A stretch of 64,000 nucleotides of DNA from Escherichia phage OSYSP, in sequence record MF402939, one strand, 5' to 3'. Within the stretch, counting starts at the first letter, position 1, and the number at the start of each line of letters is the position of its first letter. The notes beneath the pieces are model-generated. The model worked only from the letters and a program-made list of their open reading frames with translations, ran no database searches and was not told the DNA's origin. Made by a program: the position numbers and the translations under genes. Positions 290 to 47,625 of the stretch are shown here, in pieces.

Positions 290-345
290 AAATTTTACTT
301 GCAGGATGCCCAAAATCTTGATATAATATTTATATTGAATTGAGA
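290..345 (+). promoter_or_regulatory. Early sigma70-type promoter (TATAAT at about 322-327) with the conserved downstream ATTGAGAGA leader module
   Basis: Match to the promoter module that recurs across the early region. Confidence 0.5.
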
Positions 346-826
346 GACATTAGTAAAAATTGATTTTGCTAATTTTTCTTGTTTACAATCCGCGATACGG
401 AACAGTTAGGCTGCCCCATTAAGGGTTGTTTTAACTGTTACGTGTTAGTTTTTAAACAAATAATTAATAGAATACTTAGCGATCTGCGTCCCGTAGGAAC
501 CCTGGTAAGGCCTCGAAGCAACCTAGATAGAGGTGGTTGTGAAGTGAGACGGGAGGAGTGAAAAACTCCGAGACGTGATTCTGTAAGTTATATTGCATCT
601 AGTATGAGCTAGTATATGAAGCATTAGGTGAGCAAATCTGGCTTAGCGGCCATCCTCAAGGATTTGTGCGGTATAGCAAAGCAGCAGCGCAGCGTGAAAG
701 TGGAAGTTGCCACCCCACTTCAGTATTTGCGATTAATTTGTTGAGAAATTGACAGTAACAGTTGTTCTATTCTTTCTGAATAGTCCTAAAGAAAACTTAT
801 TTCATTTCCAATACAGGAGTATTGTT

Positions 827-3616
827 GTGTTTTCAATCCTACAAGGTCATGCAGGATTTCATCGCGATTTAGCCACAGGCAATTGGCGAGAAGTTAAGGC
901 AGAAGATTATCTTTTTGCTAAAAGATTTTCCTCAAAGCATCCTGAAGGTAAACCAGCTTCAATGCCCTTCAAGTTTGATGTAATTGACGAAGTTGATCCT
1001 CAAACCCTAGTAGAAATGCTTCCTCTTATGAGACGTTTAACGTCTGATCCTCATATCGTTGCGGTACGAGGTAGATGTCTTGCACCTAAAAATAATGTGC
1101 GACGTAAGAAGGGCAACTTTAATGTATCTAATCCAAGTCATATAATCGCAATGGATGTGGATGGTATTGTAGATACAGGAGGTTGTAACAAGTTTGATCT
1201 TGTTGGCATGGCGCGTCATATTATTAGGATGTTGAATAGTATTAGTGAGGATATGTTTCCTCTTGATGCAGGGTTTATTGCTCATGCATCGTCTTCGGCT
1301 GGACTAAAACCAGGTATCCGAATGCATTTAATACTAGAATCTAATGTTAAAGTTACACAGGGTCAGATCAAGTTCTTATTTACATCTATCAACGAAAGTA
1401 GTAGACAAAAGTATGGTTTTGATATTGCCGACTTAGCTTATTACTCTTCAGTACAGCTCCACTATTTTGCAGATCCTTTATTTATTGATGGTATAGTTGA
1501 TCCGTTTAAAGCGGAGGATGCTTCACGTCTGGTATTTGTTAAGGGTTCTAAAGTAAATTTACCTAATAATCTAGTTGACTATGAAACAACTAGAGGGGAG
1601 TTTAAAGAGGAATTCTACTCTTTACTCGATCAAATTAAAGGTAAAAAAGCTGCCTCTGATAAAGTAGAAGAAACCATCAGCGAGTTAGAGGAAGCTGAGG
1701 ATGGTGTATATCTACGTATTATTCCTAAACTCTATCACCGAGCACTAGAGGATGGTGTAGATTTTGGTTGGCTAGAGAAGGAGATCCGCCCAGCTTTATC
1801 TGAGTATATTGCAACTAAAGATAATAGTCGTAATATTCAGGATTATTTTAATAACGGTCGAAAACAGGCTCTGAAAGCATTTGTTAATAATTCTAAACGT
1901 GATATACCTGATGTTTTAAAAGGTATTCCACTTAAAAAGCTAGAAACTAACTCTCTAGAAACAGATAATTTCTTGAAATTAAACACTGTGCCACCAGAAG
2001 GTTATATGACTTTTGTAAAAGCAAGTCTAGGTACAGGTAAAACCACGGCGGTTGTGCGTTGGTTAGATTCAGGAGTTATTAAAGGTAATTTCTTAGCAAT
2101 TACCAATACTAGGGCACTGGTGTCTTCAAATGCCAAGAAATTTAGTGCAGGACAATATGATAAGTCTGTAGATATGCTTAATTTTAAGCGTGGTGCTATT
2201 GACCGTATGTCCACAACTATCCACTCTTTACATAAGTTTAAGAGTTTTATTGGTCAAATTGATGCAATCTTTATCGATGAATGTGATGCAGTAATGAATG
2301 ACCTATTATTCGCCCCGGTTGTTAAGCAACGTCGTGAGTGTATTCAGGTTCTTCGTGATATTCTTGCAACTGCAAAAATCATTATACTATCCGATGGTGA
2401 TATTAGTGCGGAAACAATTGAAGCATATGGTTCTTTGATTGAGTTCGATAAACCAGTTGCATTCTATAATCATCACCGTAAGATGCTGTCAAAAGCCCAC
2501 GCTTATGAGTTTCCAGATGAATCCAGTATTTGGGTTGCACTTCAGACTTCTCTAGAGATGGGGGAGAAATCTATTCTAGTATCTGATTGTGGCCCTGATG
2601 AGCTGAATGAGAAGGGTATGGCACTGCGTCGTAACACGGGTGCGTTAGTTAAGGAAATCCATTCAAACTCTACCTCAGATGTGGATATTCGACGTATTCT
2701 GGATTATACAACTAATGAGCTAATTGATCAACAAATTGATTGCTTATTATGTAGTCCATCCGTAACGAGCGGTGTTGACTTCAACTATTTTGATAACGTA
2801 TTCGTTATTACTAGAACCAGTAATCAAGCGCCAAACATGCGTTTTCAAGCAATCAGGCGCGACCGTGGTGCTCAGAATATCTATTATTTTATTGATAAAT
2901 CCACTAGTGGGTTCTCTGCAGGTTCTGAACAATATAATATTGATGAAGGTTGGCTGGAGTTAGCACAGCAATTATACGCACGTCGTAGAGAGCTGGAATC
3001 TAGAAACTATACTAGTACCTTACGGTATTACTTGCTTGATCAGGGTGCAACTATTGATATTTTCAGCGAAAGCTGGGGAACTATTGAAGGTGCTGGTAAA
3101 GAATATACAGAAGAGCGAATCAAAGCTATTCTGCATTCAACTCCAGATTATTGTGCCCCACGTCATGCAGATGCATATGAAGCTAAACTACTTCTTGTTC
3201 GCTATTATCATCTTGAGTCTATTAAAGATGTAACAGTTGAGCATGTTGAACAATATATCAAAGATAAACCGAATGATCGAGCTGCATTCTTCCATAAGAT
3301 GCACGAGATGTTCTGGGAAGATATTAAAAAGTGTTCAAATGTGACCATTAAACCATTCATAGAGGCTCTGAAAGGTAAGAAGAAAGACTTCTTCCTTAAA
3401 ACAGGTCAGAGTGCTAACCCAAAATATGCTAGAATGTATCTTGGTATGATGGGTATTGGTAAGGATATGAACACTGAAAATATCGTAGACTGGTATAGAA
3501 CCTATTGTAAAATCGAGTGTATGCCAATTCCATATAAGTTCATGACTGACGAGGAAAAACATATGCACGATGAAGCAATGTCAGAGCTAGGTGCTAGAAA
3601 TGACAGTGAAGAATAA
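827..3616 (+). CDS. Large P-loop NTPase, putative replication-associated helicase or initiator; probable GTG start at 827 after an AGGAG Shine-Dalgarno
   Basis: Walker A (GTGKTT) and Walker B-like (IFIDECD) motifs in the ORF translation; position at the head of the replication module; ORF-track start at 749 looks like translated leader. Confidence 0.6.
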   Translation: MFSILQGHAGFHRDLATGNWREVKAEDYLFAKRFSSKHPEGKPASMPFKFDVIDEVDPQTLVEMLPLMRRLTSDPHIVAVRGRCLAPKNNVRRKKGNFNVSNPSHIIAMDVDGIVDTGGCNKFDLVGMARHIIRMLNSISEDMFPLDAGFIAHASSSAGLKPGIRMHLILESNVKVTQGQIKFLFTSINESSRQKYGFDIADLAYYSSVQLHYFADPLFIDGIVDPFKAEDASRLVFVKGSKVNLPNNLVDYETTRGEFKEEFYSLLDQIKGKKAASDKVEETISELEEAEDGVYLRIIPKLYHRALEDGVDFGWLEKEIRPALSEYIATKDNSRNIQDYFNNGRKQALKAFVNNSKRDIPDVLKGIPLKKLETNSLETDNFLKLNTVPPEGYMTFVKASLGTGKTTAVVRWLDSGVIKGNFLAITNTRALVSSNAKKFSAGQYDKSVDMLNFKRGAIDRMSTTIHSLHKFKSFIGQIDAIFIDECDAVMNDLLFAPVVKQRRECIQVLRDILATAKIIILSDGDISAETIEAYGSLIEFDKPVAFYNHHRKMLSKAHAYEFPDESSIWVALQTSLEMGEKSILVSDCGPDELNEKGMALRRNTGALVKEIHSNSTSDVDIRRILDYTTNELIDQQIDCLLCSPSVTSGVDFNYFDNVFVITRTSNQAPNMRFQAIRRDRGAQNIYYFIDKSTSGFSAGSEQYNIDEGWLELAQQLYARRRELESRNYTSTLRYYLLDQGATIDIFSESWGTIEGAGKEYTEERIKAILHSTPDYCAPRHADAYEAKLLLVRYYHLESIKDVTVEHVEQYIKDKPNDRAAFFHKMHEMFWEDIKKCSNVTIKPFIEALKGKKKDFFLKTGQSANPKYARMYLGMMGIGKDMNTENIVDWYRTYCKIECMPIPYKFMTDEEKHMHDEAMSELGARNDSEE

Positions 3617-3833
3617 AAAATGGGAAACAAGGAAGTTTCCAGTAAAAGAACGTAAAGTTCCTGTTTATGATACTTCGGAAAAGCTATGTAGGGTGGTACC
3701 GCACAGATTAGCTGGCATCCCTAACATATCCGAATGGTTACTTAAACAACGGAGGACTAACGTATCTCTTCGCATAGGGTTTGAGTTAGATAAAGTATAT
3801 GCTGAACTTTCTTCTTTGCTCAAAGAATCATAA
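3600..3833 (+). CDS. Small basic hypothetical protein overlapping the 3' end of the ATPase gene
   Basis: ORF track (3591..3833); ATG at 3600. Confidence 0.3.
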   Translation: MTVKNKKWETRKFPVKERKVPVYDTSEKLCRVVPHRLAGIPNISEWLLKQRRTNVSLRIGFELDKVYAELSSLLKES

Positions 3834-3900
3834 AAAATTTATTTGCTTTCAGGAAAATTTTTCTGTATAATAGATTCATAAATTTGAGAGAGGAGTTTAA
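3830..3900 (+). promoter_or_regulatory. T5 P-N25-like strong early promoter (TTGCTT -35, TATAAT -10, ATAAATTTGAGAGAGGAG leader)
   Basis: Sequence TTTATTTGCTTTCAGGAAAATTTTTCTGTATAATAGATTCATAAATTTGAGAGAGGAGTT matches the classical T5 N25 promoter as I recall it. Confidence 0.8.
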
Positions 3901-3902
3901 AT

Positions 3903-4607
3903 ATGGCTGGTTCTCACAGAAAGAAACATATCCATGAAATCCCGGATGAAGTCTTTAAAAAAGTTATAGAGCATCTGGAGAACGGTGGTACTAAGAAAGC
4001 AGCATGTGAAATGCTAGGCGTATCATCCAATCCAACTATGGAAAGGATGATTGAAGAGTGGCAAGACCGCCAGATTCAAGTTGCCGAAATGAAGAAAAAG
4101 AAACGTGGTACACTCATTGAAGGTATTGAGTTGGCCAACGTTATTGAACAGTATCTATCTGGCGATTCTTTTGAAGAGATTGCCGATCGTAATTACCGCT
4201 CTGTAGCAATGGTTAAATCTGTTCTGGAACGCTATGGTGCTCTGCTTCGTTTGAATGATATTGTAGATCCATTGAGTCCTCCAATTATTCCTGACGATGC
4301 TGTGGCAGAAGAATTTGAGGTAGGTGAGCTTGTTTGGGTTCCTGGATACCAGTGTATCGGTGAAATCAAAAAAGCAATGGATAACCCTGTTGGTTGTTAC
4401 CGTGTATGGCTCTTATCAGAAGGCAAACAACAGAACGTTCATTATATGAATTATGAGCTGGCTTCTGTTAAACACCTGGAAAAGCTAGGGGTTGATGTAA
4501 AGTCTCTGGGGTACAAATGGTCCCGGGAAGAAGTTATCACACTGATTAACGAAGCTGTTAAGGCTGCCTTGAAACTTGATAAAGATAAAGGAAAACGCCG
4601 TGAGTAG
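3903..4607 (+). CDS. Hypothetical early protein (234 aa)
   Basis: ORF directly downstream of the P-N25-like promoter and leader. Confidence 0.6.
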   Translation: MAGSHRKKHIHEIPDEVFKKVIEHLENGGTKKAACEMLGVSSNPTMERMIEEWQDRQIQVAEMKKKKRGTLIEGIELANVIEQYLSGDSFEEIADRNYRSVAMVKSVLERYGALLRLNDIVDPLSPPIIPDDAVAEEFEVGELVWVPGYQCIGEIKKAMDNPVGCYRVWLLSEGKQQNVHYMNYELASVKHLEKLGVDVKSLGYKWSREEVITLINEAVKAALKLDKDKGKRRE

Positions 4608-4851
4608 ACTAACTGATTTACTTAAAGATGGGGAAGTAAAAACGCTATATCGTAGAAGCTGGGATAACGATAATTACGGCTTAGTGTTACTAACTTTAGA
4701 TGCTGACTCGGATGTAGCTACTCAACATACCTGGGTAGCCGGTAACTATCCATATAGCGAGGCTGTTTCATTAACAGTATGCGAAGCTATTGCAGATGAT
4801 TGGGAGGTTGCCAGCATCGATGATATGCGTGCTGTTGGCCTGCTGGAGTAA
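4576..4851 (+). CDS. Hypothetical protein (91 aa)
   Basis: ORF track; start overlaps the upstream gene. Confidence 0.45.
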   Translation: MIKIKENAVSRLTDLLKDGEVKTLYRRSWDNDNYGLVLLTLDADSDVATQHTWVAGNYPYSEAVSLTVCEAIADDWEVASIDDMRAVGLLE

Positions 4852-4865
4852 CTACTTAAAAATTT

Positions 4866-4900
4866 CAGTTGCTTAATCCTACAATTCTTGATATAATATT
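4866..4900 (+). promoter_or_regulatory. Early promoter (TTGCTT ... TATAAT)
   Basis: Consensus -35/-10 hexamers read from the sequence. Confidence 0.55.
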
Positions 4901-4954
4901 CTCATAGTTTGAAAGAACTATTCTGTTTAATTCTTAATTAAGGAAATATAAAAT

Positions 4955-5365
4955 ATGACTACTCCAACTCAGTGGACTGATGAACTGTTCGAAAAAATGT
5001 CTTCCGAATACGTTGCTCGTATGGAGCAATTCCCAGAGGATGAACGTCCGGGTGTTAGCATGGAAATTGTTAGCGAAATTGCCCAGGAAAATGGTGTAAC
5101 TCCGAACGGTTTTCGTATGAAGCTGACTAAAGCAGGTTTGTATATCAAGAAAGCTGCTGGTTCTACTTCTAAATCTAGCGCATCTACTGGAGAAAAAGCT
5201 TCCGGTGGTTCTCGTACCTCCAAAGCCCAAGCTCATGCTGATCTTCGTTCAGCATTCTCTGATGCTGGCTTAGCGCCAGATTTTCTGGATGATGCAATTA
5301 TCGACAAACTGACCGGTAAAGCGGCTGCTCATCTGGCAGAAGCAATCCGAGCTATCACTAAGTAA
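4955..5365 (+). CDS. Hypothetical early protein with Ser/Ala-rich low-complexity C-terminal half
   Basis: ORF track; promoter upstream. Confidence 0.55.
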   Translation: MTTPTQWTDELFEKMSSEYVARMEQFPEDERPGVSMEIVSEIAQENGVTPNGFRMKLTKAGLYIKKAAGSTSKSSASTGEKASGGSRTSKAQAHADLRSAFSDAGLAPDFLDDAIIDKLTGKAAAHLAEAIRAITK

Positions 5366-5401
5366 TTTTAGATAAATCCACCAACAAAAGGAACTATAGC
5401 T

Positions 5402-5698
5402 ATGACTAAAGCTGAAATTATTGCACAGTGCGAAAAATTTGGTGAGTTTTATCTTCATTACGAGAAACTTCGTCAGAAAGGAACCACGTATCTTCAGGGT
5501 ACAATGGAATTTGATCCGGCCCAAGATAAATATCTGGCTGAGCGTATTAAACGCGAACGTATTCGTAAAGCGAAAGATGATGAAATCCTTGTCTTCTCTC
5601 GTACTAATGATAGCTTCCGTTTTATTCCTGTCGAGAAAGTTCGTCGTGTGACTAGCCTCCAATCAGAGTTAGATCGTGCTTCTCCAGTAGGCCGATAA
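5402..5698 (+). CDS. Hypothetical basic protein (98 aa)
   Basis: ORF track; terminator immediately downstream. Confidence 0.55.
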   Translation: MTKAEIIAQCEKFGEFYLHYEKLRQKGTTYLQGTMEFDPAQDKYLAERIKRERIRKAKDDEILVFSRTNDSFRFIPVEKVRRVTSLQSELDRASPVGR

Positions 5699-5708
5699 GA
5701 AAACAATT

Positions 5709-5731
5709 AGCCCCTATATGGGGCTTTTTGT
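5709..5731 (+). terminator. Rho-independent terminator (AGCCCC-TATAT-GGGGCT-TTTTT)
   Basis: Hairpin plus T-run. Confidence 0.7.
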
Positions 5732-5748
5732 GTATTTGGGATATGTAA

Positions 5749-6057
5749 ATGAGCGAACAGGTAAATCAAAACTATGAAGGACACGTTGATGACCAGTCCA
5801 TCATACTTTGGGAGAAGGAGGGGGAACAAGTAAGATTAACAGTATCTGAATTTCGTGGGAATCTATACATGGGTATTCGTTACTGGCTTCTTGATATTAA
5901 TGATGAGTGGTTTCCAACGAAATCTGGCTTCTCTTTTCCTTACACCCTAGAAACAACATCACAGCTTTTCTATGCGTTTACACAGATTCTTAGCGAATCT
6001 GAGGTTTTACATGAAGTACAGAAACGAGCTGAAGAACTCAAAGCCAAGAATGCCTAG
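5749..6057 (+). CDS. Hypothetical protein (102 aa)
   Basis: ORF track. Confidence 0.5.
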   Translation: MSEQVNQNYEGHVDDQSIILWEKEGEQVRLTVSEFRGNLYMGIRYWLLDINDEWFPTKSGFSFPYTLETTSQLFYAFTQILSESEVLHEVQKRAEELKAKNA

Positions 6058-6071
6058 TTCTTGGCTTTTTC
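6043..6071 (+). terminator. Rho-independent terminator (GCCAAGAA ... TTCTTGGC + TTTTTC)
   Basis: Hairpin plus T-run overlapping the stop codon. Confidence 0.65.
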
Positions 6072-6082
6072 TTTATAAATGT

Positions 6083-6125
6083 ATTTGCTTTCAACTCAGT
6101 TTTGTTATATAATATTTATATAAAT
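6083..6125 (+). promoter_or_regulatory. Early promoter with ATAAATT leader
   Basis: TTGCTT ... TATAAT consensus. Confidence 0.6.
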
Positions 6126-6144
6126 TAATGAGAGATATAAATAA

Positions 6145-7116
6145 ATGACTAATGTAAAAGAATTTATTAAACGCTGTCAAGAAGCATATTATCAAGGCAT
6201 GTCTTTAATCTCTGATGAGGAGTATGATCGCCTGGTAAAACGCTTCCCGTTAGAGGAAGAGATCGGGCCTAAGGGTGATATTCCACATCTATATCGTATG
6301 TATTCTTTACAGAAAGTTTACTATAACCGTGGAGATAAACCACCATTCAATCCTTTAGGTCAGGTGGAAACCGATAAGTTAGATGGTTGTGCAATTTCTC
6401 TGCTATATATTAATGGCGAATTTGTTCAAGCACTAACTCGTGGTAATGGTATTCTGGGGAATGATGTCACAAGCAACGTAAGATTGCTGAACATTCCTAA
6501 AAAGATTTCCCAAAAAGTACCTACTCAAATCACTGGTGAAGTTCTAATTACAAAAGAAGTAGAAAATAAACGTAACTTTGCCTCTGGTGCTATTAACCTC
6601 AAAGATAGCGATGCTTTCGTACAACGCATTGGAGAAGGCGGTTTAATCTTTGTTGCTTATGGTATCCAGTGTTCTGCTGAATCTGTAGGTATTACAGAAG
6701 CATATTTAAAAGATATGCTTTGGCTAGAGAATGAGAACTTCTTAACAGTCGTTAATGTGCGTTCCTTTTTTAAATGGATTCCGACGGACGGTAAAGTTGT
6801 TCGTATTAATGACAACAACAAATTCTTCCGCGAAGGCTGGACTAATAAATTCCCTCGTGGAGCATTCGCTATTAAAGAGGATGAAGAAGGCGAGATTACA
6901 ACTCTTACTAAAGTTGAATGGCAGGTAGGGGCTTCTGGTAAAGTAACTCCAGTTGGTTATTTCGAACCGGTAATTATTGATGATGCTACGATTGTTAAAG
7001 CGACTCTTAATAACGTTGATTATATTAACTCTCTCGATCTAGAGATCGGTTGCCAGATTCGAGTGATTCGTGCTGGTGGTGTAATCCCGTGCATAGTAGA
7101 GCGAGTATATGATTAA
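6145..7116 (+). CDS. NAD-dependent DNA ligase, N-terminal subunit (adenylation plus OB domains)
   Basis: KxDG adenylation motif (ETDKLDGCAISLLY) and LigA-like architecture in the translation. Confidence 0.8.
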   Translation: MTNVKEFIKRCQEAYYQGMSLISDEEYDRLVKRFPLEEEIGPKGDIPHLYRMYSLQKVYYNRGDKPPFNPLGQVETDKLDGCAISLLYINGEFVQALTRGNGILGNDVTSNVRLLNIPKKISQKVPTQITGEVLITKEVENKRNFASGAINLKDSDAFVQRIGEGGLIFVAYGIQCSAESVGITEAYLKDMLWLENENFLTVVNVRSFFKWIPTDGKVVRINDNNKFFREGWTNKFPRGAFAIKEDEEGEITTLTKVEWQVGASGKVTPVGYFEPVIIDDATIVKATLNNVDYINSLDLEIGCQIRVIRAGGVIPCIVERVYD

Positions 7117-7256
7117 TACATAACCCTTTGCTACCCATCTACCATATCGGAATTATAAAGTGGTTATTGACATTTTCGCCGCTTAGGTATATACTATTAT
7201 CATTCAGTTGAGGGATAGAAAGTTATGGCGAGGGTAAGCAAAGTTAGTTAAAATTG

Positions 7257-7300
7257 TAGTTGCTAAATGCTTAAATACTTGCTATAATATTTATATAAAT
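7257..7300 (+). promoter_or_regulatory. Early promoter sitting between the two ligase ORFs
   Basis: TTGCTA ... TATAAT plus ATAAATTGATAAGGAAG leader. Confidence 0.55.
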
Positions 7301-7318
7301 TGATAAGGAAGAAATTTG

Positions 7319-8095
7319 ATGAAAATCGAAATTCCAACACAATGTCCCTCTTGTGGTTCTAAGCTAGATCTTGTCAACGGACAATTATTCTGTCGTAATA
7401 AGTCCAACTGTCCAGCGCAATCAAGTAAGTTAATTGAGAACTTCTGTACAAAAATGAAGTTAAAGGGCTTTGGCCCGAAAACTATTGAAAAGCTGGAGCT
7501 GACTAAGATTTCAGAACTATTTTACCTAACCGAAGAAGATTTGGTTAGAGCCGTGGGTAGCAAGGTTGCCGCTAAGTTAATTAGCGAATTAAATACTAAA
7601 GTTCGTGGAGACATTGACTTTGGTTCAGTTCTCGGTTCTTTAGGAATCCCTCTAATTGGAGAGGTTGCAGCAAAGAAATTGTCCCAAAATTGCACCAGTT
7701 TTCAAGATGTGAGAGCTGATGGCAAAGCTGGAGAAAACTATAAAGCCTGGCTAAATTCCCCACAAGGCAAGGATGTTATCGAATTACCGTGGAAATTCTC
7801 AAATGGTATTAAGGGTGCTAAAGCTGACATCATTACTGATGGTCTAGTAGCCCAACCAAACGGAATAACGGTGTGTATTACCGGATCTTTGCAAGATTTT
7901 GCAAATCGAACGGATGCAACAAACTATTTAGAAGGTCTAGGATACACGGTTAAGAAATCCGTTACCAAAGACGTCAAATACCTAATCTGTGAGGATGAAT
8001 CGAAGCGTTCTTCCTCATCTTATAAGAAAGCCGAAACGAATGGGATAGAAATCCTGTCGATTAAAGAACTATTGGAGAAAAATAATAATGTCTAA
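7319..8095 (+). CDS. NAD-dependent DNA ligase, C-terminal subunit (Zn finger, HhH, BRCT-like)
   Basis: Cys4 motif CPSCGS...CRNKSNCPAQ; C-terminal BRCT-like region (ITGSL...KYLICEDE). Confidence 0.75.
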   Translation: MKIEIPTQCPSCGSKLDLVNGQLFCRNKSNCPAQSSKLIENFCTKMKLKGFGPKTIEKLELTKISELFYLTEEDLVRAVGSKVAAKLISELNTKVRGDIDFGSVLGSLGIPLIGEVAAKKLSQNCTSFQDVRADGKAGENYKAWLNSPQGKDVIELPWKFSNGIKGAKADIITDGLVAQPNGITVCITGSLQDFANRTDATNYLEGLGYTVKKSVTKDVKYLICEDESKRSSSSYKKAETNGIEILSIKELLEKNNNV

Positions 8096-8855
8096 ACTGA
8101 ACTGGAACGTAGAAGGTGTAACCGAGTCTCTGAAAGCAAAAGCCACTGCTCTGGGTGTTGCTGTAATCTCTCAAGAACAAGTAGCTGCTATCGCTGCTGA
8201 ACTGGCTGCTGAAACTGGCAAAGACGTTACCGCTCGCTCTGTTGGCTCTAAGCTGCGTAAAGAAGGTTTCGAAGTACAGAAAGCTAACGAAGTACAGAAA
8301 TCTCCGTGGACTCCTGAGCAGGAAGCTGAACTGGTTGATTTCCTGAACGCTCATGCTGGTCAGTATACCTATGCTGAAATCGCTGCTGCTGTAGCTGGTG
8401 GTCAATTTGGTGCTAGGCAGGTACAGGGTAAGATCCTGAGTCTGGAAATGACCGCTTCTGTTAAACCAACTGAAAAAGCAGCTGCTGTTCGTTCCTTCAC
8501 TCCTGATGAAGAAACTGATTTTGTTAATCAGGTTGTTGCTGGTGCTACTATTGAAGCTATCGCTGCTCACTTCGGTCGTAATATCAAGCAGATCCGTGGT
8601 AAAGCTCTGAGCCTGCTTCGTGAAGGTCGTATCGCTGCTATGCCGGTACAGGAAACTTCAAGTGCTAAAACTCGTGAAGATCTGCTAGAAGGTCTGGATC
8701 TGGTTAACATGACCGTTGCTGAGATCGCTGAGAAAACTGGTAAGTCTGAGCGTGGTGTTAAATCTATGTTGTCTCGTCGTGGTCTGGTTGCTAAGGACTA
8801 TGATGGTGCCGCTAAGCGTGCTAAACTGGATGCAAAAGCTGCGGCTGCTGAATAA
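8088..8855 (+). CDS. Ala-rich protein with internally duplicated helical modules; possible DNA-binding regulator
   Basis: ORF track; repeated AIAA...G(K/R) modules in the translation. Confidence 0.5.
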   Translation: MSKLNWNVEGVTESLKAKATALGVAVISQEQVAAIAAELAAETGKDVTARSVGSKLRKEGFEVQKANEVQKSPWTPEQEAELVDFLNAHAGQYTYAEIAAAVAGGQFGARQVQGKILSLEMTASVKPTEKAAAVRSFTPDEETDFVNQVVAGATIEAIAAHFGRNIKQIRGKALSLLREGRIAAMPVQETSSAKTREDLLEGLDLVNMTVAEIAEKTGKSERGVKSMLSRRGLVAKDYDGAAKRAKLDAKAAAAE

Positions 8856-8871
8856 TCTGGTAAATTAAACC

Positions 8872-8905
8872 TAAGGGGAGGGGGCTATGCTCCTTCCCCT
8901 TTTTG
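8872..8905 (+). terminator. Rho-independent terminator (AAGGGGA ... TCCCCTT + TTTT)
   Basis: Hairpin plus T-run. Confidence 0.7.
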
Positions 8906-8937
8906 CATTTAGAAGGCACGAAAGCGTGCAAAGGAGA

Positions 8938-10410
8938 ATGACCTTGTTTAACGTGCAAGCTGTAGTGTTGAAGATGCTTCTAGCTTCCGAACAGAAGCAA
9001 ATAGCATTGGAAACATTCTCAAAACTGCATAAAGATCATTTTAATGACGCTTTCTCCTCAATTTACCAAGCCGTCCAGAATTATTATAAAAAATATAACA
9101 CAATGCCGTCCATTGACGCACTGATGCTTGAGGCTAATAGGAACGCCCGCCTTTCTCAAGCTCTAGTCGTTTTAGCTAACACTCAAATTCCAGAAGTTAG
9201 CATGGAACAGGCACTTGAAGTCCTAGAGGCCGAGTATACACAGGATTTATTCCTGAAGCTTCTAGAAACAGACGTGCTTCAAGATTTAACAATGCTGGAT
9301 CAGGGAGAAATTCTTAACCGAGTTGCCTCCCTTCACTTAAAATTAGAAGAGAAAGTAACGAATACTGGAAAAGTATTCAACGCAGATAATATGCGTATTT
9401 TCCAGAGAGAAGAAGATACCAAACTGAACTTAATCGCTCTTGGTATTTGTAATGAGTTCGACGCTCAAATTGGTTTAGCTCGCACAGAAACGTTACTGCT
9501 TGGTGGTTGGCGTGGTACTGGTAAATCCATTATCTGTTCAAACATACAGGTTCAGCAATATTTGAATGGGGATATTGCTCCATACTTCTCAATTGAGATG
9601 AAAGAACATGAAGTATTTAGACGTAATCTAGCCATGTTAGCTGGTGTATCAGCACTAGCAATGCGTAATAATACTCTAGAAGGTGCAGCTCTGTTGAGAT
9701 TAGCCAGAACTAGAGCTAGGATGTTTAACGGTGGTGAAGAGCTCTTCGATAACTTCGTTAAACAGTATACAATGGCTAAGATGAGTGATTTCTACGACAT
9801 GGAGAGTAAGCTAATAGAAGGGTATGAGCTACATACTCCTATGATTATTGTTTATGACCCTGAGCTGTCTATTACAACAGTTGACGTAGAATTAAATAAA
9901 TTAGTTGCTAGATATGGGGATAAAGTTACAGTAGCTTTACTGGACTATATTAACCAAACCCGACTTCCAGACTCTAAAACCATTGATATGTATGACTGGA
10001 AAGAACAGATGGTTGTTAGCTCGTCTTTCAAATCTATCTGCCAGAAACATAACGTGGCTGGTGTAGCTCCTTACCAGATTGATCAAGATGGTAGAACACG
10101 TATGTCAAAAGGGATTCTTGATTCCGCAGACATGGCTGCTAATCTTAATGCTGCAAAAGCTGATAATGGTCAAGGTGCTATTATGTTTGACTTCGTTAAG
10201 ACTCGTTCTTCTGATAGCGTGAAGTTTATGCCTAAAATGAACTGGGAAACCCTGCGGATGGATAACACTACCAACCTAGCAATGGAAGATATATCTCAAA
10301 TGGAAGCTGAGTTCGTTATCCCTATTGAGAAGGATAAGCCGGCTCAATCTAAACGTGCTAAGAAAGACAAAGCTGAAAATTCAACAGGTGAACAGGCCAG
10401 CGATATATGA
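8938..10410 (+). CDS. Putative DnaB-like/RecA-fold replicative helicase
   Basis: Walker A GWRGTGKS; AAGGAG Shine-Dalgarno before ATG at 8938; lies directly upstream of primase. Confidence 0.55.
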   Translation: MTLFNVQAVVLKMLLASEQKQIALETFSKLHKDHFNDAFSSIYQAVQNYYKKYNTMPSIDALMLEANRNARLSQALVVLANTQIPEVSMEQALEVLEAEYTQDLFLKLLETDVLQDLTMLDQGEILNRVASLHLKLEEKVTNTGKVFNADNMRIFQREEDTKLNLIALGICNEFDAQIGLARTETLLLGGWRGTGKSIICSNIQVQQYLNGDIAPYFSIEMKEHEVFRRNLAMLAGVSALAMRNNTLEGAALLRLARTRARMFNGGEELFDNFVKQYTMAKMSDFYDMESKLIEGYELHTPMIIVYDPELSITTVDVELNKLVARYGDKVTVALLDYINQTRLPDSKTIDMYDWKEQMVVSSSFKSICQKHNVAGVAPYQIDQDGRTRMSKGILDSADMAANLNAAKADNGQGAIMFDFVKTRSSDSVKFMPKMNWETLRMDNTTNLAMEDISQMEAEFVIPIEKDKPAQSKRAKKDKAENSTGEQASDI

Positions 10411-11297
10411 GTAGAATAACAGAACTACTTGATCTGAAAGGCATTGAATATAAAGACACAGGTGGGGACATCCTCATCTGTTGTCTCAATCCAGATCATG
10501 ACGATAAACACCCAAGTTTGCGTATTGACCCTGAAACAGGTATTATGCACTGCTTGAGTTGTGGCTTCGGTAAAGGTATACCGAGCATTTACCATTATTT
10601 TAATGAGACTCAGTACCGACAGTCCCCAAGGCTATCGCAAGTACGTAAAAAGATTTCAGAGATTAGGAATGGATCAACGAATCTTGCAATTCCTGAATCT
10701 GCTTACCTTTTCGAAGGTGATTTCCGAGGTATAAGTTCTAAGACCTTGAAGAAATATTTTGCTTTCCAACACCAAGCAGACTGGGAAGGCAGAATTGTAT
10801 TCCCAATCACAGATGCTGTTGGACGCAATATCCTATTTTTGGGTCGTTCTATAAACAGTTCTGCCCCTCCTAAATACTTAGTAAAACCAAAACAAGTTTC
10901 ACCGCCAATTTTTCCTGTACGATATAATACTCCAGTCCTTATTCTAGTTGAAGGCATCTTTGATATGCTGAACCTAGAGGATAATGGTATAGACTATGCT
11001 TCTTGCTGCTTTGGTACACATCAGTTTACTTCGGATAACATTGCAGATAAGTTCAGTCCTTATATTATCGCCGGTGTAAAAGTTGTTGTTATCTTACTAG
11101 ATAATGATGCTTCTGGTAATAAAGCTGCCCAGGCTCTAGCAAAATTAATTCGTACAAAAACACGTTTAACACCTGTAGTTGCTAACTTCTTACTTCCAGA
11201 GGGTAAGGATCCTGGTGATTTAAATAAAGAAGAAGTCGATACGTTAGCAAAACGTATTGAAATTTTAGTTGCTGAATCACTTAAAGATTTGGTATAA
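10407..11297 (+). CDS. DNA primase (zinc-ribbon plus TOPRIM)
   Basis: CxxxxH...CxxC zinc motif and TOPRIM-like EGIFD / LLDNDASG motifs. Confidence 0.75.
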   Translation: MSRITELLDLKGIEYKDTGGDILICCLNPDHDDKHPSLRIDPETGIMHCLSCGFGKGIPSIYHYFNETQYRQSPRLSQVRKKISEIRNGSTNLAIPESAYLFEGDFRGISSKTLKKYFAFQHQADWEGRIVFPITDAVGRNILFLGRSINSSAPPKYLVKPKQVSPPIFPVRYNTPVLILVEGIFDMLNLEDNGIDYASCCFGTHQFTSDNIADKFSPYIIAGVKVVVILLDNDASGNKAAQALAKLIRTKTRLTPVVANFLLPEGKDPGDLNKEEVDTLAKRIEILVAESLKDLV

Positions 11298-11300
11298 TAT
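11285..11300 (+). promoter_or_regulatory. Extended -10 promoter (TGGTATAAT)
   Basis: TGnTATAAT motif. Confidence 0.4.
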
Positions 11301-11359
11301 ATTGGTAAGTTAGAGAAGAAACACTGAAGTTATACTTACTTACCAAGAGGAGATTAAAT

Positions 11360-13927
11360 TTGAAAATCGCAGTAGTTGATAAAGCTCTAAATAACACTCG
11401 TTACGATAAACATTTCCAGCTATACGGCGAGGAAGTTGATGTATTCCATATGTGTAACGAGAAGTTGTCCGGTCGTTTGCTCAAAAAGCATATTACTATC
11501 GGGACTCCGGAAAACCCATTTGACCCGAATGATTATGATTTTGTTATACTGGTAGGTGCCGAACCTTTTCTGTACTTTGCAGGTAAGAAAGGTATTGGTG
11601 ATTATACCGGTAAACGTGTAGAGTATAATGGATATGCTAACTGGATTGCTAGTATCAGCCCAGCCCAGTTACACTTTAAACCTGAAATGAAACCAGTTTT
11701 TGATGCAACAGTAGAGAATATCCACGATATTATCAATGGTCGTGAGAAGATTGCAAAAGCTGGTGATTACCGTCCTATTACTGACCCTGACGAGGCAGAA
11801 GAATATATCAAGATGGTGTATAATATGGTTATCGGACCTGTCGCATTCGACTCCGAAACCTCAGCACTATACTGTCGAGATGGTTATCTGCTTGGTGTTT
11901 CTATATCTCACCAAGAGTATCAGGGTGTATATATTGATTCTGATTGTCTCACAGAGGTTGCAGTATATTATCTCCAGAAAATTCTAGATAGTGAAAACCA
12001 CACTATTGTTTTTCACAACTTGAAGTTTGATATGCACTTTTATAAGTACCATCTGGGACTTACTTTTGATAAAGCACATAAAGAACGCAGGCTCCATGAT
12101 ACCATGTTGCAGCACTATGTTCTAGATGAACGTCGTGGTACTCATGGCTTGAAATCTCTAGCAATGAAGTATACCGATATGGGTGACTATGACTTCGAAC
12201 TAGATAAGTTCAAAGATGATTACTGCAAAGCACATAAAATCAAGAAAGAAGATTTCACCTATGATTTAATTCCATTTGATATTATGTGGCCGTATGCTGC
12301 GAAAGATACAGATGCTACTATACGTTTGCACAACTTCTTTTTACCAAAAATTGAGAAGAATGAAAAACTTTGCAGTCTGTACTATGATGTTTTGATGCCT
12401 GGTTGCGTATTCTTGCAACGTGTTGAGGATCGTGGAGTACCTATCTCTATTGATCGTTTGAAAGAAGCTCAGTATCAATTGACCCATAATTTGAATAAAG
12501 CCCGTGAGAAACTGTACACTTATCCAGAAGTTAAACAGCTAGAACAAGGTCAGAATGAAGCATTTAACCCGAACTCTGTTAAGCAACTTCGTGTTCTTCT
12601 GTTCGATTATGTTGGTTTGACTCCAACTGGTAAGTTAACAGATACGGGTGCAGATTCTACAAACGCAGAAGCTCTGAATGAGTTGGCAACCCAGCATCCT
12701 ATTGCTAAAACTCTTCTAGAGATTCGTAAGCTGACTAAGCTGATCTCTACTTATGTTGAGAAGATTCTACTGAGTATTGATGCAGATGGTTGCATTCGTA
12801 CTGGTTTCCATGAACATATGACTACTTCTGGTCGTCTGAGTTCTTCTGGTAAACTGAACCTGCAACAGCTACCTCGTGATGAATCTATTATTAAGGGTTG
12901 TGTAGTTGCACCACCTGGATACCGTGTAATCGCGTGGGACTTAACAACTGCGGAAGTTTACTATGCTGCTGTTCTATCTGGTGATAGAAATATGCAACAA
13001 GTATTTATCAACATGAGAAATGAACCCGATAAATACCCTGACTTCCACTCTAACATCGCCCACATGGTATTTAAATTGCAATGTGAACCTCGTGATGTTA
13101 AGAAGCTGTTCCCAGCTCTACGTCAGGCAGCTAAGGCAATTACCTTTGGTATTTTGTATGGTTCTGGCCCGGCTAAAGTAGCACATTCTGTTAACGAAGC
13201 ATTGCTAGAGCAAGCAGCCAAAACTGGTGAACCGTTTGTTGAATGTACTGTTGCAGATGCTAAAGAGTACATTGAGACTTACTTTAGTCAATTCCCACAG
13301 CTTAAGCGTTGGATTGATAAGTGCCACGATCAGATCAAGAATCATGGGTTTATCTATAGTCACTTTGGTCGTAAACGTCGTCTGCATAATATCCATTCCG
13401 AAGACCGTGGCGTTCAGGGTGAAGAAATTCGTTCTGGATTTAACGCAATCATTCAGTCTGCTTCTTCTGATAGTCTCCTTTTAGGTGCTGTAGATGCAGA
13501 TAATGAGATCATTTCTCTTGGCTTAGAACAAGAGATGAAGATTGTTATGCTGGTTCATGACTCCGTAGTTGCTATTGTTCGCGAGGATTTGATCGACCAG
13601 TACAATGAAATCCTGATTCGTAATATTCAGAAAGACCGTGGTATCAGTATTCCTGGCTGTCCTATTGGTATTGATTCAGATTCTGAAGCTGGAGGTTCTC
13701 GTGACTATTCTTGTGGTAAGATGAAGAAACAGCATCCATCAATTGCTTGTATTGATGATGACGAATATACTCGTTACGTTAAAGAAATGCTACTTGATGC
13801 AGATTTCGAGTATAAGAAATTAGCTGCAATGGATAAAGAACATCCAGACCACAGCAAGTACAAGGATGATAAGTTTATTGCTGTATGTAAAGATCTGGAT
13901 AACGTGAAAAGGATTCTCGGTGCTTAA
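11360..13927 (+). CDS. Family A DNA polymerase with 3'-5' exonuclease domain (855 aa, TTG start)
   Basis: Exo motif FDSETS, pol motif A (DLTTAE), motif B (KAITFGILYGSG), motif C (VHDS); length matches the T5 polymerase. Confidence 0.95.
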   Translation: MKIAVVDKALNNTRYDKHFQLYGEEVDVFHMCNEKLSGRLLKKHITIGTPENPFDPNDYDFVILVGAEPFLYFAGKKGIGDYTGKRVEYNGYANWIASISPAQLHFKPEMKPVFDATVENIHDIINGREKIAKAGDYRPITDPDEAEEYIKMVYNMVIGPVAFDSETSALYCRDGYLLGVSISHQEYQGVYIDSDCLTEVAVYYLQKILDSENHTIVFHNLKFDMHFYKYHLGLTFDKAHKERRLHDTMLQHYVLDERRGTHGLKSLAMKYTDMGDYDFELDKFKDDYCKAHKIKKEDFTYDLIPFDIMWPYAAKDTDATIRLHNFFLPKIEKNEKLCSLYYDVLMPGCVFLQRVEDRGVPISIDRLKEAQYQLTHNLNKAREKLYTYPEVKQLEQGQNEAFNPNSVKQLRVLLFDYVGLTPTGKLTDTGADSTNAEALNELATQHPIAKTLLEIRKLTKLISTYVEKILLSIDADGCIRTGFHEHMTTSGRLSSSGKLNLQQLPRDESIIKGCVVAPPGYRVIAWDLTTAEVYYAAVLSGDRNMQQVFINMRNEPDKYPDFHSNIAHMVFKLQCEPRDVKKLFPALRQAAKAITFGILYGSGPAKVAHSVNEALLEQAAKTGEPFVECTVADAKEYIETYFSQFPQLKRWIDKCHDQIKNHGFIYSHFGRKRRLHNIHSEDRGVQGEEIRSGFNAIIQSASSDSLLLGAVDADNEIISLGLEQEMKIVMLVHDSVVAIVREDLIDQYNEILIRNIQKDRGISIPGCPIGIDSDSEAGGSRDYSCGKMKKQHPSIACIDDDEYTRYVKEMLLDADFEYKKLAAMDKEHPDHSKYKDDKFIAVCKDLDNVKRILGA

Positions 13928-14417
13928 TTTCAAATTGCCCGTCTATGCGTTACGGGCGTTTGTATCAATTGAGCAAGAAGGTGATTATTCCGTAATTACA
14001 ACAAGGTATAATAAATATGTGCTAGATAACAGGAAGTTGCCTGGCACGTTTTCTCAACGTAGGCTTATTCTATTTGAGAAACGGAAAGAATTACCATACA
14101 AGCTCTACCCTATTAGAGGTAGAATATCAATGTTGTCTCAATTAGTTGGGTCAAAGCGTAGCCAATTTATAGATTCTGATGGAAATCTTATTAACTGGAA
14201 GAAAACTACGTTCTATGATGTTGTCACCTCTAAAGTTTTGCATTCAGCTAGAATTTATAATGGAAAATACCAATGCTATGTGGCTAAAGTCCCTTATCCA
14301 TTTGTATTATCCTATGTTCCAGCTTATATAAGCTATATTCTGGTAAATAATAGCCATGTTATTTATCAAGTCCATCAAGAGGAGCCTGAAATTCCTAGAC
14401 TTAGAATAAAATTATGA
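13920..14417 (+). CDS. Hypothetical protein (165 aa)
   Basis: ORF track; translationally coupled to neighbours. Confidence 0.5.
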   Translation: MLNFKLPVYALRAFVSIEQEGDYSVITTRYNKYVLDNRKLPGTFSQRRLILFEKRKELPYKLYPIRGRISMLSQLVGSKRSQFIDSDGNLINWKKTTFYDVVTSKVLHSARIYNGKYQCYVAKVPYPFVLSYVPAYISYILVNNSHVIYQVHQEEPEIPRLRIKL

Positions 14418-15766
14418 AGGTTGTTATATCTAATAAAGCCTATTTCAAGCCCGATGATGAACTTTGGGATTATTGTAGTAAGCAAACCACTTATCACATA
14501 GAGACAATGACTAGTAAATACCCTATTATGTATAAGAATAGTGGTGTTGTTGCCAAAGAGATTAAGTGGATTCCTATTACGCGTCTGGACTTACTAGATG
14601 CTAAAGGAGTAAAATACGAATTAGTCGATAAACGTACATTAGCTCCGGTAGACATACCAAAACCTAAGTTCAAATTGCGCGAAGAAGATCAACTTCCAAT
14701 ATACGAAGAGTGCGATGATACCTGTATTATTAATGGTAAGCCTGGATTTGGTAAAACTATCCTAGCCCTTGCACTTGCGTATAAATTTGGTCAGAAAACT
14801 TTGGTAATCTGTACGAATACATCCATTCGTGAAATGTGGGCGGCAGAAGTTCGTAAATGGTTTGGGTTTGAACCAGGCATCATAGGTTCTGGGAAATACA
14901 ATATTGATCCACCAATTGTAGTCAGTAATATTCAAACAGTGAATAAACACGCGAATAATCTTTCTAAAGTATTCGGTACTGTTATAGTTGATGAAGTTCA
15001 CCATTGTGTGGCTACAACTTTCACTAACTTCCTAGAAATATCATGTGCTCGCTATAAAATTGGACTATCCGGTACACTAAAACGAAAAGATGGTTTACAA
15101 GTTATGTTCAAAGATTTCTTTGGATATAAGATATTTAGCCCGCCGGTTAATAATACTGTTGCACCTACAATCCATAGGTACTCCGTGCCTGTTGAGCTAT
15201 CAGGAAACCAAAACGTGCCGTGGGCATTACGTGCTAACGATGTGTATAATCATCCTGAATATCGAGAGACTATTATAAACCTAGCACATTTATATGTGAA
15301 TATGGGACATAAAGTACTCATTGTAAGTGATAGAACAGAGTTAATCCAAACAGTACTAGAAGCACTATCTCAGAGAGGAGTCACAACCTATGAGATTATT
15401 GGCGCAACTCACTTAGATGACCGATTAAAAATTCAGGAAGATATAGCAAAAGGTGGGCCTTGTGTGCTTGCAGCAGCTCAAAGTATCTTCTCTGAGGGTA
15501 TTTCCCTTAATGAGCTATCTTGTTTAATAATGGGAAGCCTTATTAATAATGAATCTCTCATTGAACAGCTTGCAGGCCGTGTTCAACGTATTGTCGATGG
15601 TAAACTCGACCCTATTGTTGTAGATCTAATTATGAAAGGTGGCACTGGACTAAGACAGGCTTCTGGACGTATGGCAGTATATCGTAACAACGGGTGGAAA
15701 ACTATTACTATGACTCCGGAGAAAGCAGTTCAATTAGCTAAAATTGCATTTGGCAACAGCTCATAA
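14414..15766 (+). CDS. SF2 DNA helicase (D10-like)
   Basis: Walker A GKPGFGKT and DEVHH box. Confidence 0.85.
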   Translation: MKVVISNKAYFKPDDELWDYCSKQTTYHIETMTSKYPIMYKNSGVVAKEIKWIPITRLDLLDAKGVKYELVDKRTLAPVDIPKPKFKLREEDQLPIYEECDDTCIINGKPGFGKTILALALAYKFGQKTLVICTNTSIREMWAAEVRKWFGFEPGIIGSGKYNIDPPIVVSNIQTVNKHANNLSKVFGTVIVDEVHHCVATTFTNFLEISCARYKIGLSGTLKRKDGLQVMFKDFFGYKIFSPPVNNTVAPTIHRYSVPVELSGNQNVPWALRANDVYNHPEYRETIINLAHLYVNMGHKVLIVSDRTELIQTVLEALSQRGVTTYEIIGATHLDDRLKIQEDIAKGGPCVLAAAQSIFSEGISLNELSCLIMGSLINNESLIEQLAGRVQRIVDGKLDPIVVDLIMKGGTGLRQASGRMAVYRNNGWKTITMTPEKAVQLAKIAFGNSS

Positions 15767-15769
15767 ATG

Positions 15770-15800
15770 ATGTATAATATATACATAAATTTGAGAGAGA
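15770..15800 (+). promoter_or_regulatory. Early promoter (TATAAT + CATAAATTTGAGAGAGAG leader)
   Basis: Match to the recurring promoter module. Confidence 0.5.
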
Positions 15801-15849
15801 GAAAGTTTCGGATTGATAAGAAAGTCCGAAGCAGAAAAATAAAAATTTT

Positions 15850-15895
15850 AGTTGCTAAATTCTCTCGAAATCTAGTATAATATATACATAAATTC
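15850..15895 (+). promoter_or_regulatory. Early promoter (TTGCTA ... TATAAT + CATAAATTCGAGGAG leader)
   Basis: Consensus hexamers. Confidence 0.6.
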
Positions 15896-15988
15896 GAGGA
15901 GAAAACAAAAATTAAATTCTTCGATTATGAAAAGCTATACTTACTAGCTAGAGGAAATTCCGACCTAATTATTAAGCTATTCAAAAGA

Positions 15989-39613: not shown

Positions 39614-39625
39614 TTATTTTTCCCA

Positions 39626-41048: not shown

Positions 41049-41065
41049 TTTTAAATAATTCTCCG

Positions 41066-41698: not shown

Positions 41699-41701
41699 TT
41701 A

Positions 41702-43847: not shown

Positions 43848-43961
43848 AGTGTTCTCCTCAACTGTATGAATATAGTATACATAATCGTATCGAATTTGTA
43901 AAGGGGATTTTAAAATACAGGAATGGGATACCAACTGAGTAGTATCCCATCCTATACTTAT

Positions 43962-45760: not shown

Positions 45761-45770
45761 ATTTCCTCCT

Positions 45771-47558: not shown

Positions 47559-47583
47559 ATAATCTCCTATTATAAAAATGTAT

Positions 47584-47625
47584 TTGCTTTTATCCCTCTA
47601 TTTTGCTATAATAGACTCATAAATT
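47584..47625 (+). promoter_or_regulatory. Strong early-type promoter for the lipoprotein gene
   Basis: TTGCTT - 17 bp - TATAAT followed by CATAAATTAGAAATGGAGAG leader. Confidence 0.65.

Follow-up and report, generated by a model that had tools for sequence, protein, structure and literature searches.

The early promoters of bacteriophage T5 were sequenced and characterised in the 1980s, and one of them, P-N25 from the Bujard laboratory, became the source of the 'T5 promoter' of expression vectors and a template routinely used to study promoter escape. P-N25 joins a TTGctt -35 element, a 17-bp spacer and a TATAAT -10 element to an UP element and a 6-bp discriminator; its initiation is limited by the rate of escape, and its purine-rich initial transcribed sequence (ITS) favours escape (PMC12464699). 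Every identified T5 early promoter carries ATATT in its discriminator, an UP element is marked in Figure S5 of the same study, and transcripts from the DNA polymerase gene promoter Ppol were mapped by primer extension and showed early kinetics (PMC7472727).

The window analysed here, a stretch of 64,000 nt from Escherichia phage OSYSP (MF402939), had been described in a sequence-only reading as carrying nine copies of one early promoter module, one of them matching P-N25, from which a T5-like phage was proposed. All nine sites were present within 3 nt of the positions proposed, with -10 hexamers starting at 322, 3866, 4892, 6108, 7283, 11293, 15773, 15876 and 47607, all on the plus strand. I consider it about 95% probable that the sites belong to the early promoter class of a T5-like phage and are used by host sigma-70 RNA polymerase in its unmodified form. 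Their sequence identity, non-randomness, positions, orientation and conservation are observed.

The copy near 3866 is P-N25. Alignment of window positions 3828-3902 with the published T5 N25 transcription template gave 75 identities in 75 positions (-50 to +25) and no mismatch, bearing out the match claimed for this stretch: the UP-like block, TTGCTT, the 17-bp spacer, TATAAT, the discriminator AGATTC and the ITS ATAAATTTGAGAGAGGAGTT are all identical, and the promoter occupies the same genomic place, upstream of gene D2, as 'promoter P-N 25' in the T5 record AY543070. That record reads GGAGTTAAAT where the window and the published N25 template read GGAGTTTAAAT. The surrounding genome, in contrast, is that of a mosaic Tequintavirus and not of T5 itself; it shares 94-99% identity with many T5-like phages, so that the family proposed was the right one and the T5-like origin of the window is confirmed.

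The remaining copies, too, coincide with annotated T5 promoters, which upholds their description as early promoters. Eight sites coincide with T5P32, P-N25, P-N26, the ligA promoter, P-K28a, Ppol, P31A and P31B, and the ninth lies at the position of the lytic-conversion lipoprotein gene (llp) promoter. Over 86 ungapped positions (-50 to +36 from the start of the -10 hexamer), seven sites are identical to annotated T5 promoters at 80-86 positions, while site 322 was judged by window positions 280-441; departures from T5 consist of 1-2-nt indels within the purine tract or immediately 3' of it. The T5 early class as annotated in AY543070 and AY587007 (P-H207, P-D/E33, P10-P16, T5P32-T5P38 and others) has the same consensus, positions and orientation.

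About 70 bp are common to the nine sites, running from an A/T block to a purine run in the order AAAAtTtTA, -35 TTGCTn, spacer, TATAAT, a 6-nt A/T discriminator, +1 A, ATAAATT and purines. A -35 of TTGCT(T/A) had been proposed and holds for six of the nine, the exceptions being TTGCAG (322), TTGCTG (11293) and TTGGCA (15773), so that TTGCT itself opens the -35 in seven. TATAAT is perfect in every copy, and the spacer, put earlier at about 17 bp, is 17 or 18 bp throughout; spacers are A/T-rich, and five of the nine copies have an extended -10 TGn. The A/T block, which the sequence-only reading did not mention, lies 2-10 nt upstream of the -35 and carries 1-2 bits per position in the position weight matrix (PWM) of the nine sites. 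The discriminators are, in order of position, ATTTAT, AGATTC, ATTCTC, ATTTAT, ATTTAT, ATATTG, ATATAC, ATATAC and AGACTC; they fit an A/T-rich ATAT/ATTT pattern, with strict ATATT not in every copy. Information content in the discriminator and at +1 to +7 is again 1-2 bits per position, a conservation beyond the known needs of sigma-70 recognition, and there may be an extra functional layer at these bases.

Further downstream, the proposed ATAAATT is exact in six sites and present with one or two bases changed in three. The proposed GAGAG tract is found literally in five and missing as such from four, although all nine are purine-rich, with a purine fraction of 0.62-0.92 at +8 to +20 against a window mean of 0.50. 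Its placement before the ATG held for four copies (3866, 6108, 7283 and 47607), in which leaders of 24-25 nt bring the gene start to +25/+26 and the purine run is the ribosome-binding site. The claim of a leader was overstated for the other five, whose leaders are ~51, 55, 101, 204 and 493 nt long and which retain the purine run 50-490 nt from the start codon. All +1 positions given below are predictions based on N25 and on spacing.

A generic sigma-70 consensus scan found 60 sites against 59 expected and thus no separation from background; being no better than shuffles, it was replaced with a module-specific, two-block PWM covering -52 to +16. Scored leave-one-out, the nine sites reached 27.5-51.7 bits, while 100 dinucleotide shuffles searched on both strands gave a best score of 17.1 bits (mean 3.5). 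The pattern TTGCTW-N16-18-TATAAT alone had six matches against 0.30 expected, with six or more in none of 100 shuffles. The non-random part is the extended module and not plain -35/-10 resemblance.

Every copy is co-oriented with its downstream genes and lies in an intergenic gap or gene end, often just 3' of a terminator hairpin. Eight precede early replication or nucleotide-metabolism genes across a rightward cluster comprising obp, D2, D3, ligA, ligB, pol and the D11 operon. The leftmost (283-353), equivalent to T5P32, stands ahead of obp, the replication-origin-binding-protein gene, and its long leader, and has its -35 TTGCAG at 299-304, its -10 at 322-327 and a predicted +1 at A334. It is the weakest match of the nine (27.5 bits leave-one-out); positions 280-441 are nevertheless 100% identical to T5, and both T5 records annotate a promoter here (58999-59073; T5P32 in AY587007). 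Some 490 nt without an ORF follow, and the only hit to known RNA families in this leader was at chance level. P-N25 (3827-3902) is the promoter of gene D2, directly before which T5 has its annotated copy, with its -35 at 3843-3848, its -10 at 3866-3871, a predicted +1 at A3878 and an ATG at 3903; its 25-nt leader includes the ribosome-binding site GAGAGGAG, and the ORF at 3903-4607 matches the PHROG annotated for D2 homologues. P-N26, the gene D3 promoter (4853-4923; 85/86 against T5, annotated 'promoter P-N 26'), has its -35 at 4869-4874, its -10 at 4892-4897, a predicted +1 at A4904 and a 51-nt leader to the ATG at 4955.

The ligA promoter (6069-6139; T5P35 in AY587007, annotated as a promoter and 86/86 against T5) directly follows a terminator-like hairpin at 6040-6068 and has its -35 at 6085-6090, its -10 at 6108-6113, a predicted +1 at A6120 and a 25-nt leader to the ATG at 6145. 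P-K28a, the ligB promoter (7244-7314; 86/86, annotated 'promoter P-K 28a'), has a -35 TTGCTA at 7260-7265, its -10 at 7283-7288, a predicted +1 at A7295 and a 24-nt leader to the ATG at 7319. Upstream of it on the same strand lies P-K28b (7167-7195; annotated in T5 as 'promoter P-K 28b'), TTGACA-17-TATACT, whose core matches T5 exactly; it is outside the stereotyped module and absent among the sites above 14 bits in the flexible-discriminator module scan of the window. Ppol (11253-11324; 85/86, annotated as a promoter) combines a -35 TTGCTG at 11269-11274 with an 18-bp spacer and a -10 at 11293-11298 that contains the primase stop codon; its predicted +1 is G11305 and its gene starts with TTG at 11360.

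The last two copies of the cluster are adjacent. P31A (15734-15804; annotated 'promoter P31A', 80/86 ungapped) differs from its T5 counterpart solely by one extra GA in the purine run; its -35 TTGGCA (15750-15755) falls within the 3'-terminal part of the D10 helicase gene, with the -10 at 15773-15778 and a predicted +1 at A15785. A stable hairpin follows at about +21 to +48 (-14 kcal/mol, z = -4.6), and P31A reads straight into P31B (15836-15907; 86/86, annotated 'promoter P31B'), which has a -35 TTGCTA at 15852-15857, an 18-bp spacer, a -10 at 15876-15881, a predicted +1 at A15888 and a 101-nt leader to the ATG at 15989. Since site 322 lacks a nearby ORF and P31A runs into P31B, a simple gene promoter does not describe all copies. 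Folding of the Ppol, P-N26 and P31B leaders found no significant structure, leaving the hairpin after P31A as the only significant one, and Rfam and tRNA scans of the window gave nothing at the gathering threshold.

The ninth copy (47568-47643; -35 TTGCTT 47584-47589, -10 47607-47612, predicted +1 A47619, 25-nt leader, ATG 47644) lies within the late region, before a gene for a receptor-blocking lipoprotein of the Cor family. The ORF matches PHROG 1119, a Cor superinfection exclusion protein (E = 1.8e-26), and relatives annotate a receptor-blocking protein at this locus. T5 has a promoter at the equivalent position, before llp, with no mismatches to the module; the cassette here is of the Cor type, closest to Salmonella phages and unlike T5 llp, while the promoter class is the same. 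The site would form an island of early expression next to the late gene for the receptor-binding protein, and the title of Decker et al. (1994) has the T5 counterpart lipoprotein gene expressed early.

Scanning both strands of the window with discriminators of 5-8 nt yielded nothing past the nine sites except weak ones at 54331, 43879 and 62090, so the list given by the sequence-only reading is essentially complete for this window. The two minus-strand sites, 43879 and 62090, have TTGAC/TTACA-type -35 elements and no ITS, and were not counted. The module scan marks a putative, weak tenth copy on the plus strand (54291-54362), with a poor -35 TAGCCA (54307-54312), an 18-bp spacer, TATAAT (54331-54336) and then ATACTT-ATAAATTAAGGAG; it scored 31.2 bits with the module PWM and 28.4 bits in the flexible-discriminator scan. 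Found in the part of the terminal repeat that holds DnaA boxes, it has no ORF start within ~480 nt; T5 keeps it at 6041-6093, without annotation, and BF23 at 5267.

T5 itself holds 20 further module matches, all within annotated promoter features where none were expected by chance; together with the eight in the homologous stretch this makes at least 28 annotated copies, a lower bound as the pattern searches used fixed spacing. P-H207, with its 7-nt discriminator, was missed by the pattern. Four late or pre-early promoters of T5 (P-G25, P-J5, P-H22 and the T5.011 promoter) do without the ATAAATT segment. Outside Tequintavirus, the module recurs at syntenic positions: Klebsiella phage Shiner (Sugarlandvirus; 22-49 bits) has it ahead of ligB and pol and behind the D10 helicase gene, and Pectobacterium phage DU_PP_V (Hongcheonvirus; 27-32 bits) has it ahead of obp, D2 and D3; in the most distant BLAST hits the promoter segment alone still aligns. 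The downstream half of the module is kept across subfamilies of the Demerecviridae, in copies distant from genes and in the terminal-repeat copy with its crippled -35.

Polymerase contacts, escape kinetics and early timing are carried over by analogy from the T5 literature, and on that footing the module would work as follows. The upstream A/T block may be an UP-like element contacted by the alpha C-terminal domains, and the near-consensus upstream half would give very fast and tight polymerase binding, by which host promoters could be outcompeted. The 6-nt discriminator (ATATxx or AGAxTC) would melt easily, and transcription would begin from A with the initial sequence ATAAATT followed by a purine-rich non-template strand. 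Such a purine-rich initial transcript would reduce backtracking and abortive cycling and so permit escape from a tightly bound promoter. The copy at 47607 would provide early expression of the receptor-blocking lipoprotein inside the late region.

Other readings concern mainly the downstream half. The discriminator, ATAAATT and purine run might, on top of their promoter function, also form a site for a phage-encoded factor that switches the early class on or off. An information content of 1-2 bits per position in the discriminator and at +1 to +7 is uncommon among sigma-70 promoters, ORF-distant copies and different subfamilies retain these positions, and T5 late and pre-early promoters are without them; the early-specific ATATT has also been noted before, with the mechanism of class switching called unknown (PMC7472727). 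However, the binding protein is putative only, selection for purine-richness is already explained by the effect of the ITS on escape, and paralogous copies could merely share ancestry, which leaves this reading unlikely, if worth keeping in view. Somewhat more doubtful still is the specific proposal that the invariant downstream half may be a class mark that times the early class, acting through a phage factor (gpT5.026 or D5) or through the RNA 5' end; if true, it would bear on the mechanism of T5 temporal switching. A role at the RNA level, with AUAAAUU and the purine run forming a 5' leader that enhances translation, offers ribosome standby or signals stability or processing, would suit the fixed 24-25-nt leader of four copies, where the purine run supplies the Shine-Dalgarno sequence, and the A/U-rich leaders with their unstructured 5' ends. 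I regard it as improbable, as the tract is useless as a ribosome-binding site at 50-490 nt from the start codon in five copies, and the effects of the N25 ITS occur in vitro with pure polymerase and without translation.

A dispersed repeat family lacking promoter function, such as recombination or mobile-element relics, would account for the labels that AY587007 places on the -10/ITS parts of four sites, 'repeat b' (copies 4-5) and 'repeat c' (copies 6-7). Yet the same record also calls these sites early promoters, conservation coincides exactly with the functional sigma-70 elements while spacers diverge, and every copy faces downstream genes. N25, N26, K28a and Ppol have moreover been characterised experimentally in T5, and this reading is contradicted by published work in which N25 and Ppol drive transcription in vitro and in vivo; it deserves hardly any credence and was rejected on the conserved sigma-70 elements and the published T5 transcription.

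Read as early-class promoters, the nine sites add nothing new to biology: the reference genomes already annotate them, and P-N25 is in routine laboratory use. What they provide is a transcription map of the right-arm early region, with eight predicted early starts over 16 kb, to which the lipoprotein island adds another. The uniformity of the discriminator and first transcribed bases in the early class may relate to the temporal class switching of T5. Beyond T5, the closest comparison is with lambda PR and T7 A1, which share with this class a near-consensus -35, a 17-bp spacer, a near-consensus -10 and an UP element, and Hsu and Han set the architecture of N25 directly against lambda PR. Unlike either, the T5 class repeats a stereotyped A/T discriminator and ITS in dozens of copies, and its -35 begins TTGCT rather than TTGAC.

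Nine sites on the plus strand, named here by the starts of their -10 hexamers (322, 3866, 4892, 6108, 7283, 11293, 15773, 15876 and 47607), are classical phage T5 early promoters, already known and annotated in reference genomes. A sequence-only reading had claimed at least nine recurring sites of this type; all nine that it listed were found, which confirms the observation, and their interpretation as T5-type promoters is supported. Aligning them on the -10 gave the consensus ttnnttAAAAtTtTAn-TTGCTn-(17 or 18 bp)-TgnTATAAT-ATaTac-ATAAATTngAgAganA, with likeness among sites reaching well beyond the -35 and -10 hexamers. The literal pattern TTGCTW-N16-18-TATAAT occurred 6 times against 0.30 expected, and with a weight matrix spanning the UP-like block, -35, -10, discriminator and first 16 transcribed bases, leave-one-out scores of the nine sites were 27.5-51.7 bits, compared with a top score of 17.1 bits across 100 dinucleotide shuffles of both strands. 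Allowing a discriminator of 5-8 nt, the scan of the window returned the nine sites, a weaker one at 54331 and no other comparable site. A plain sigma-70 consensus scan was uninformative for the window (60 sites vs 59 expected), so the signal resides in the extended module. The same reading had given every site TTGCT(T/A), ATAAATT and GAGAG; these were present literally in 6/9, 6/9 and 5/9 sites, and the purine-rich tract held for all nine (purine fraction 0.62-0.92 at +8 to +20, vs 0.50).

The copy at 3866 had been matched to P-N25, a standard laboratory tool. On alignment, window 3828-3902 agreed at 75/75 bases with the T5-N25 promoter used as a transcription template in published work (bioRxiv 10.1101/2022.08.30.505822), and P-N25 primers in PMC4447248 carry the same sequence. 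In the T5 record AY543070, the homologous place carries an annotated promoter for 8/8 of the sites from 322 to 15876: an unnamed promoter at 58999-59073 (322), P-N25 (3866), P-N26 (4892), the promoter before ligA (6108), P-K28a (7283), the promoter before pol (11293), P31A (15773) and P31B (15876). The annotated neighbour P-K28b (7167-7195, TTGACA-17-TATACT) is of a different type. A second T5 record, AY587007, names the counterparts 'putative early promoter T5P32-T5P38' and lists their -10 and initial transcribed parts under two dispersed repeats, 'repeat b' and 'repeat c', so the recurrence was already recorded in 2005. Over 86 ungapped positions, seven sites were identical to T5 at 80-86 of 86, departing by only one 1-nt and one 2-nt length change and two substitutions, and both length changes lie within the purine tract or immediately behind it: the P31A tract (window 15793-15805) reads GAGAGAGAGAAAG vs GAGAGAGAAAG in AY543070, and the N25 tract (window 3893-3902) reads GGAGTTTAAAT vs GGAGTTAAAT, the TTT form being common to the window and the published template. 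Around site 322, window 280-441 showed 100% identity to T5; genes flanking the promoters showed 89-98%. Site 47607 lies within the late region, adjoins the receptor-binding-protein gene and stands before the gene for an 88-aa receptor-blocking lipoprotein of the Cor family (PHROG 1119, E = 1.8e-26); T5 has an annotated promoter at the equivalent position, before its lytic-conversion lipoprotein gene, with 0 mismatches to the module.

The purine tract had also been placed before the ATG. Measured between the predicted +1 and the start codon, the leader is short at four sites, with 25 nt (3866, 6108, 47607) or 24 nt (7283), where the purine run doubles as Shine-Dalgarno sequence; the other five have leaders of 51-493 nt. 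The run is retained without a nearby start codon at 4892 (51 nt), 11293 (55 nt) and 15876 (101 nt); the leader of 15773 (204 nt) passes through P31B, and the leader of 322 (493 nt) is long and ORF-free. Since the run is kept far from start codons in five copies, its main role is probably transcriptional.

Published T5 work supplies the mechanism, to which the window adds anatomy and conservation. Host sigma-70 polymerase transcribes all T5 gene classes, primer-extension products of the T5 pol promoter Ppol show early kinetics, and an ATATT-type discriminator occurs in all identified T5 early promoters (PMC7472727). N25 combines a near-consensus core (TTGctt/17 bp/TATAAT) with an upstream UP element, an A/T-rich spacer and a 6-bp discriminator; promoter escape is its limiting step, and a purine-rich initial transcribed sequence aids escape, while variants rich in pyrimidines backtrack and abort (Hsu and Han, PMC12464699). 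By these N25 features, the module would be a fast-capture cassette with an escape-friendly initial transcript, its upstream part capturing polymerase very rapidly and its initial transcript allowing the enzyme to leave the promoter. Three observations contradict a purely dispersed-repeat reading: conservation falls on the functional sigma-70 elements, spacers differ among copies, and every copy is oriented toward its gene. In addition to its promoter role, the downstream half could mark the class for a regulator made by the phage, or could act in the RNA as a 5' leader signal common to the copies. The discriminator and +1 to +7 show more uniformity than sigma-70 is known to require for recognition, and the T5 class-switching mechanism is still described as unknown in the literature.

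Several observations concern the surroundings of these promoters. The Ppol -10 TATAAT (11293-11298) contains the primase stop codon TAA (11295-11297), and the P31A -35 (15750-15755) lies within the final codons of the D10 helicase gene. Just 3' of the D10 stop codon, between the tandem P31A and P31B, is a hairpin (15805-15832, -14 kcal/mol, z = -4.6) at about +21 to +48 of the P31A transcript; it has no U-run after it and is therefore not a typical intrinsic terminator. The ~490-nt ORF-free leader of promoter 322 (334-826) runs to the origin-binding-protein gene (GTG 827, AGGAG at 815-819). Window 300-441, with 100% identity to T5, covers its first 108 nt, with a hairpin at 397-443; its middle (~442-753) is a G+C-richer cassette of ~310 nt, with imperfect inverted repeats at its two borders (443-468 and 732-754), where T5 has an equally long segment that does not align. 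Phage chee24 matches window 250-840, the whole leader included, at 99.5%. The leader RNA had a fold z-score of -2.97, and an Rfam search of 334-826 gave no match. T5 replication origins are reported near the genome centre, so a replication origin or structured RNA is conceivable here. Just 3' of the first promoter, 352-389 repeats part of the module's upstream half (AAAAATTGATTTTGCTAA), with only a poor -10, TACAAT, 18 bp from TTGATT. This second copy is unchanged in T5 and may represent either a weak tandem promoter or a relic. A tenth, weak copy (54291-54362, plus strand; -35 TAGCCA, poor) lies among the terminal-repeat DnaA boxes, with no ORF start within ~480 nt; this putative promoter is kept in T5 (6041-6093, unannotated) and BF23 (5267).

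The T5-like family call was borne out: the phage is a mosaic Tequintavirus, with ~95% identity to VEc33 over window 1-25000 and, around 3700-4000, 99% to HdH2 and 98.3-98.7% to T5, while the nearest relatives of its receptor-binding region are Salmonella phages. It lacks the HNH homing-endonuclease genes hegI and hegJ, which in T5 follow obp and the D6 helicase gene; at these two points the alignment to T5 has gaps of ~500 nt (window ~3546-3596 and ~10407-10410). Within 48900-64000, one terminal repeat copy (dmp 48904-49680, A1 50463-52127, A2 52478-52885, DnaA boxes 54100-54530) directly follows the late region, and left-arm early genes come next on the minus strand at 59-64 kb. From this order, the record differs from the linear virion map and is a circularised or collapsed-repeat assembly.

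The rest of T5 was searched with the fixed-spacing module (23 specified bases, ≤3 mismatches, 0 expected by chance), which gave 20 more matches in annotated promoters (20/20), including P-F30, P11, P13b, P14a/b, P15a/b/c, P16-17, P-D/E33 and the llp promoter, and one unannotated place per terminal repeat. With the 8 in the homologous stretch, T5 has at least 28 copies; P-H207, a class member with a 7-nt discriminator, was missed by the strict pattern. In the remotest BLAST relatives, alignment is left only over the promoter segment at window 289-349. Outside the genus, syntenic copies precede ligB and pol and follow the D10 helicase gene in Klebsiella phage Shiner (Sugarlandvirus; 22-49 bits), and precede obp, D2 and D3 in Pectobacterium phage DU_PP_V (Mccorquodalevirinae; 27-32 bits). 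In contrast, the T5 late (P-G25, P-J5) and pre-early (P-H22, T5.011 promoter) promoters compared are without ATAAATT, and their -35 is mostly TTGAC-type.
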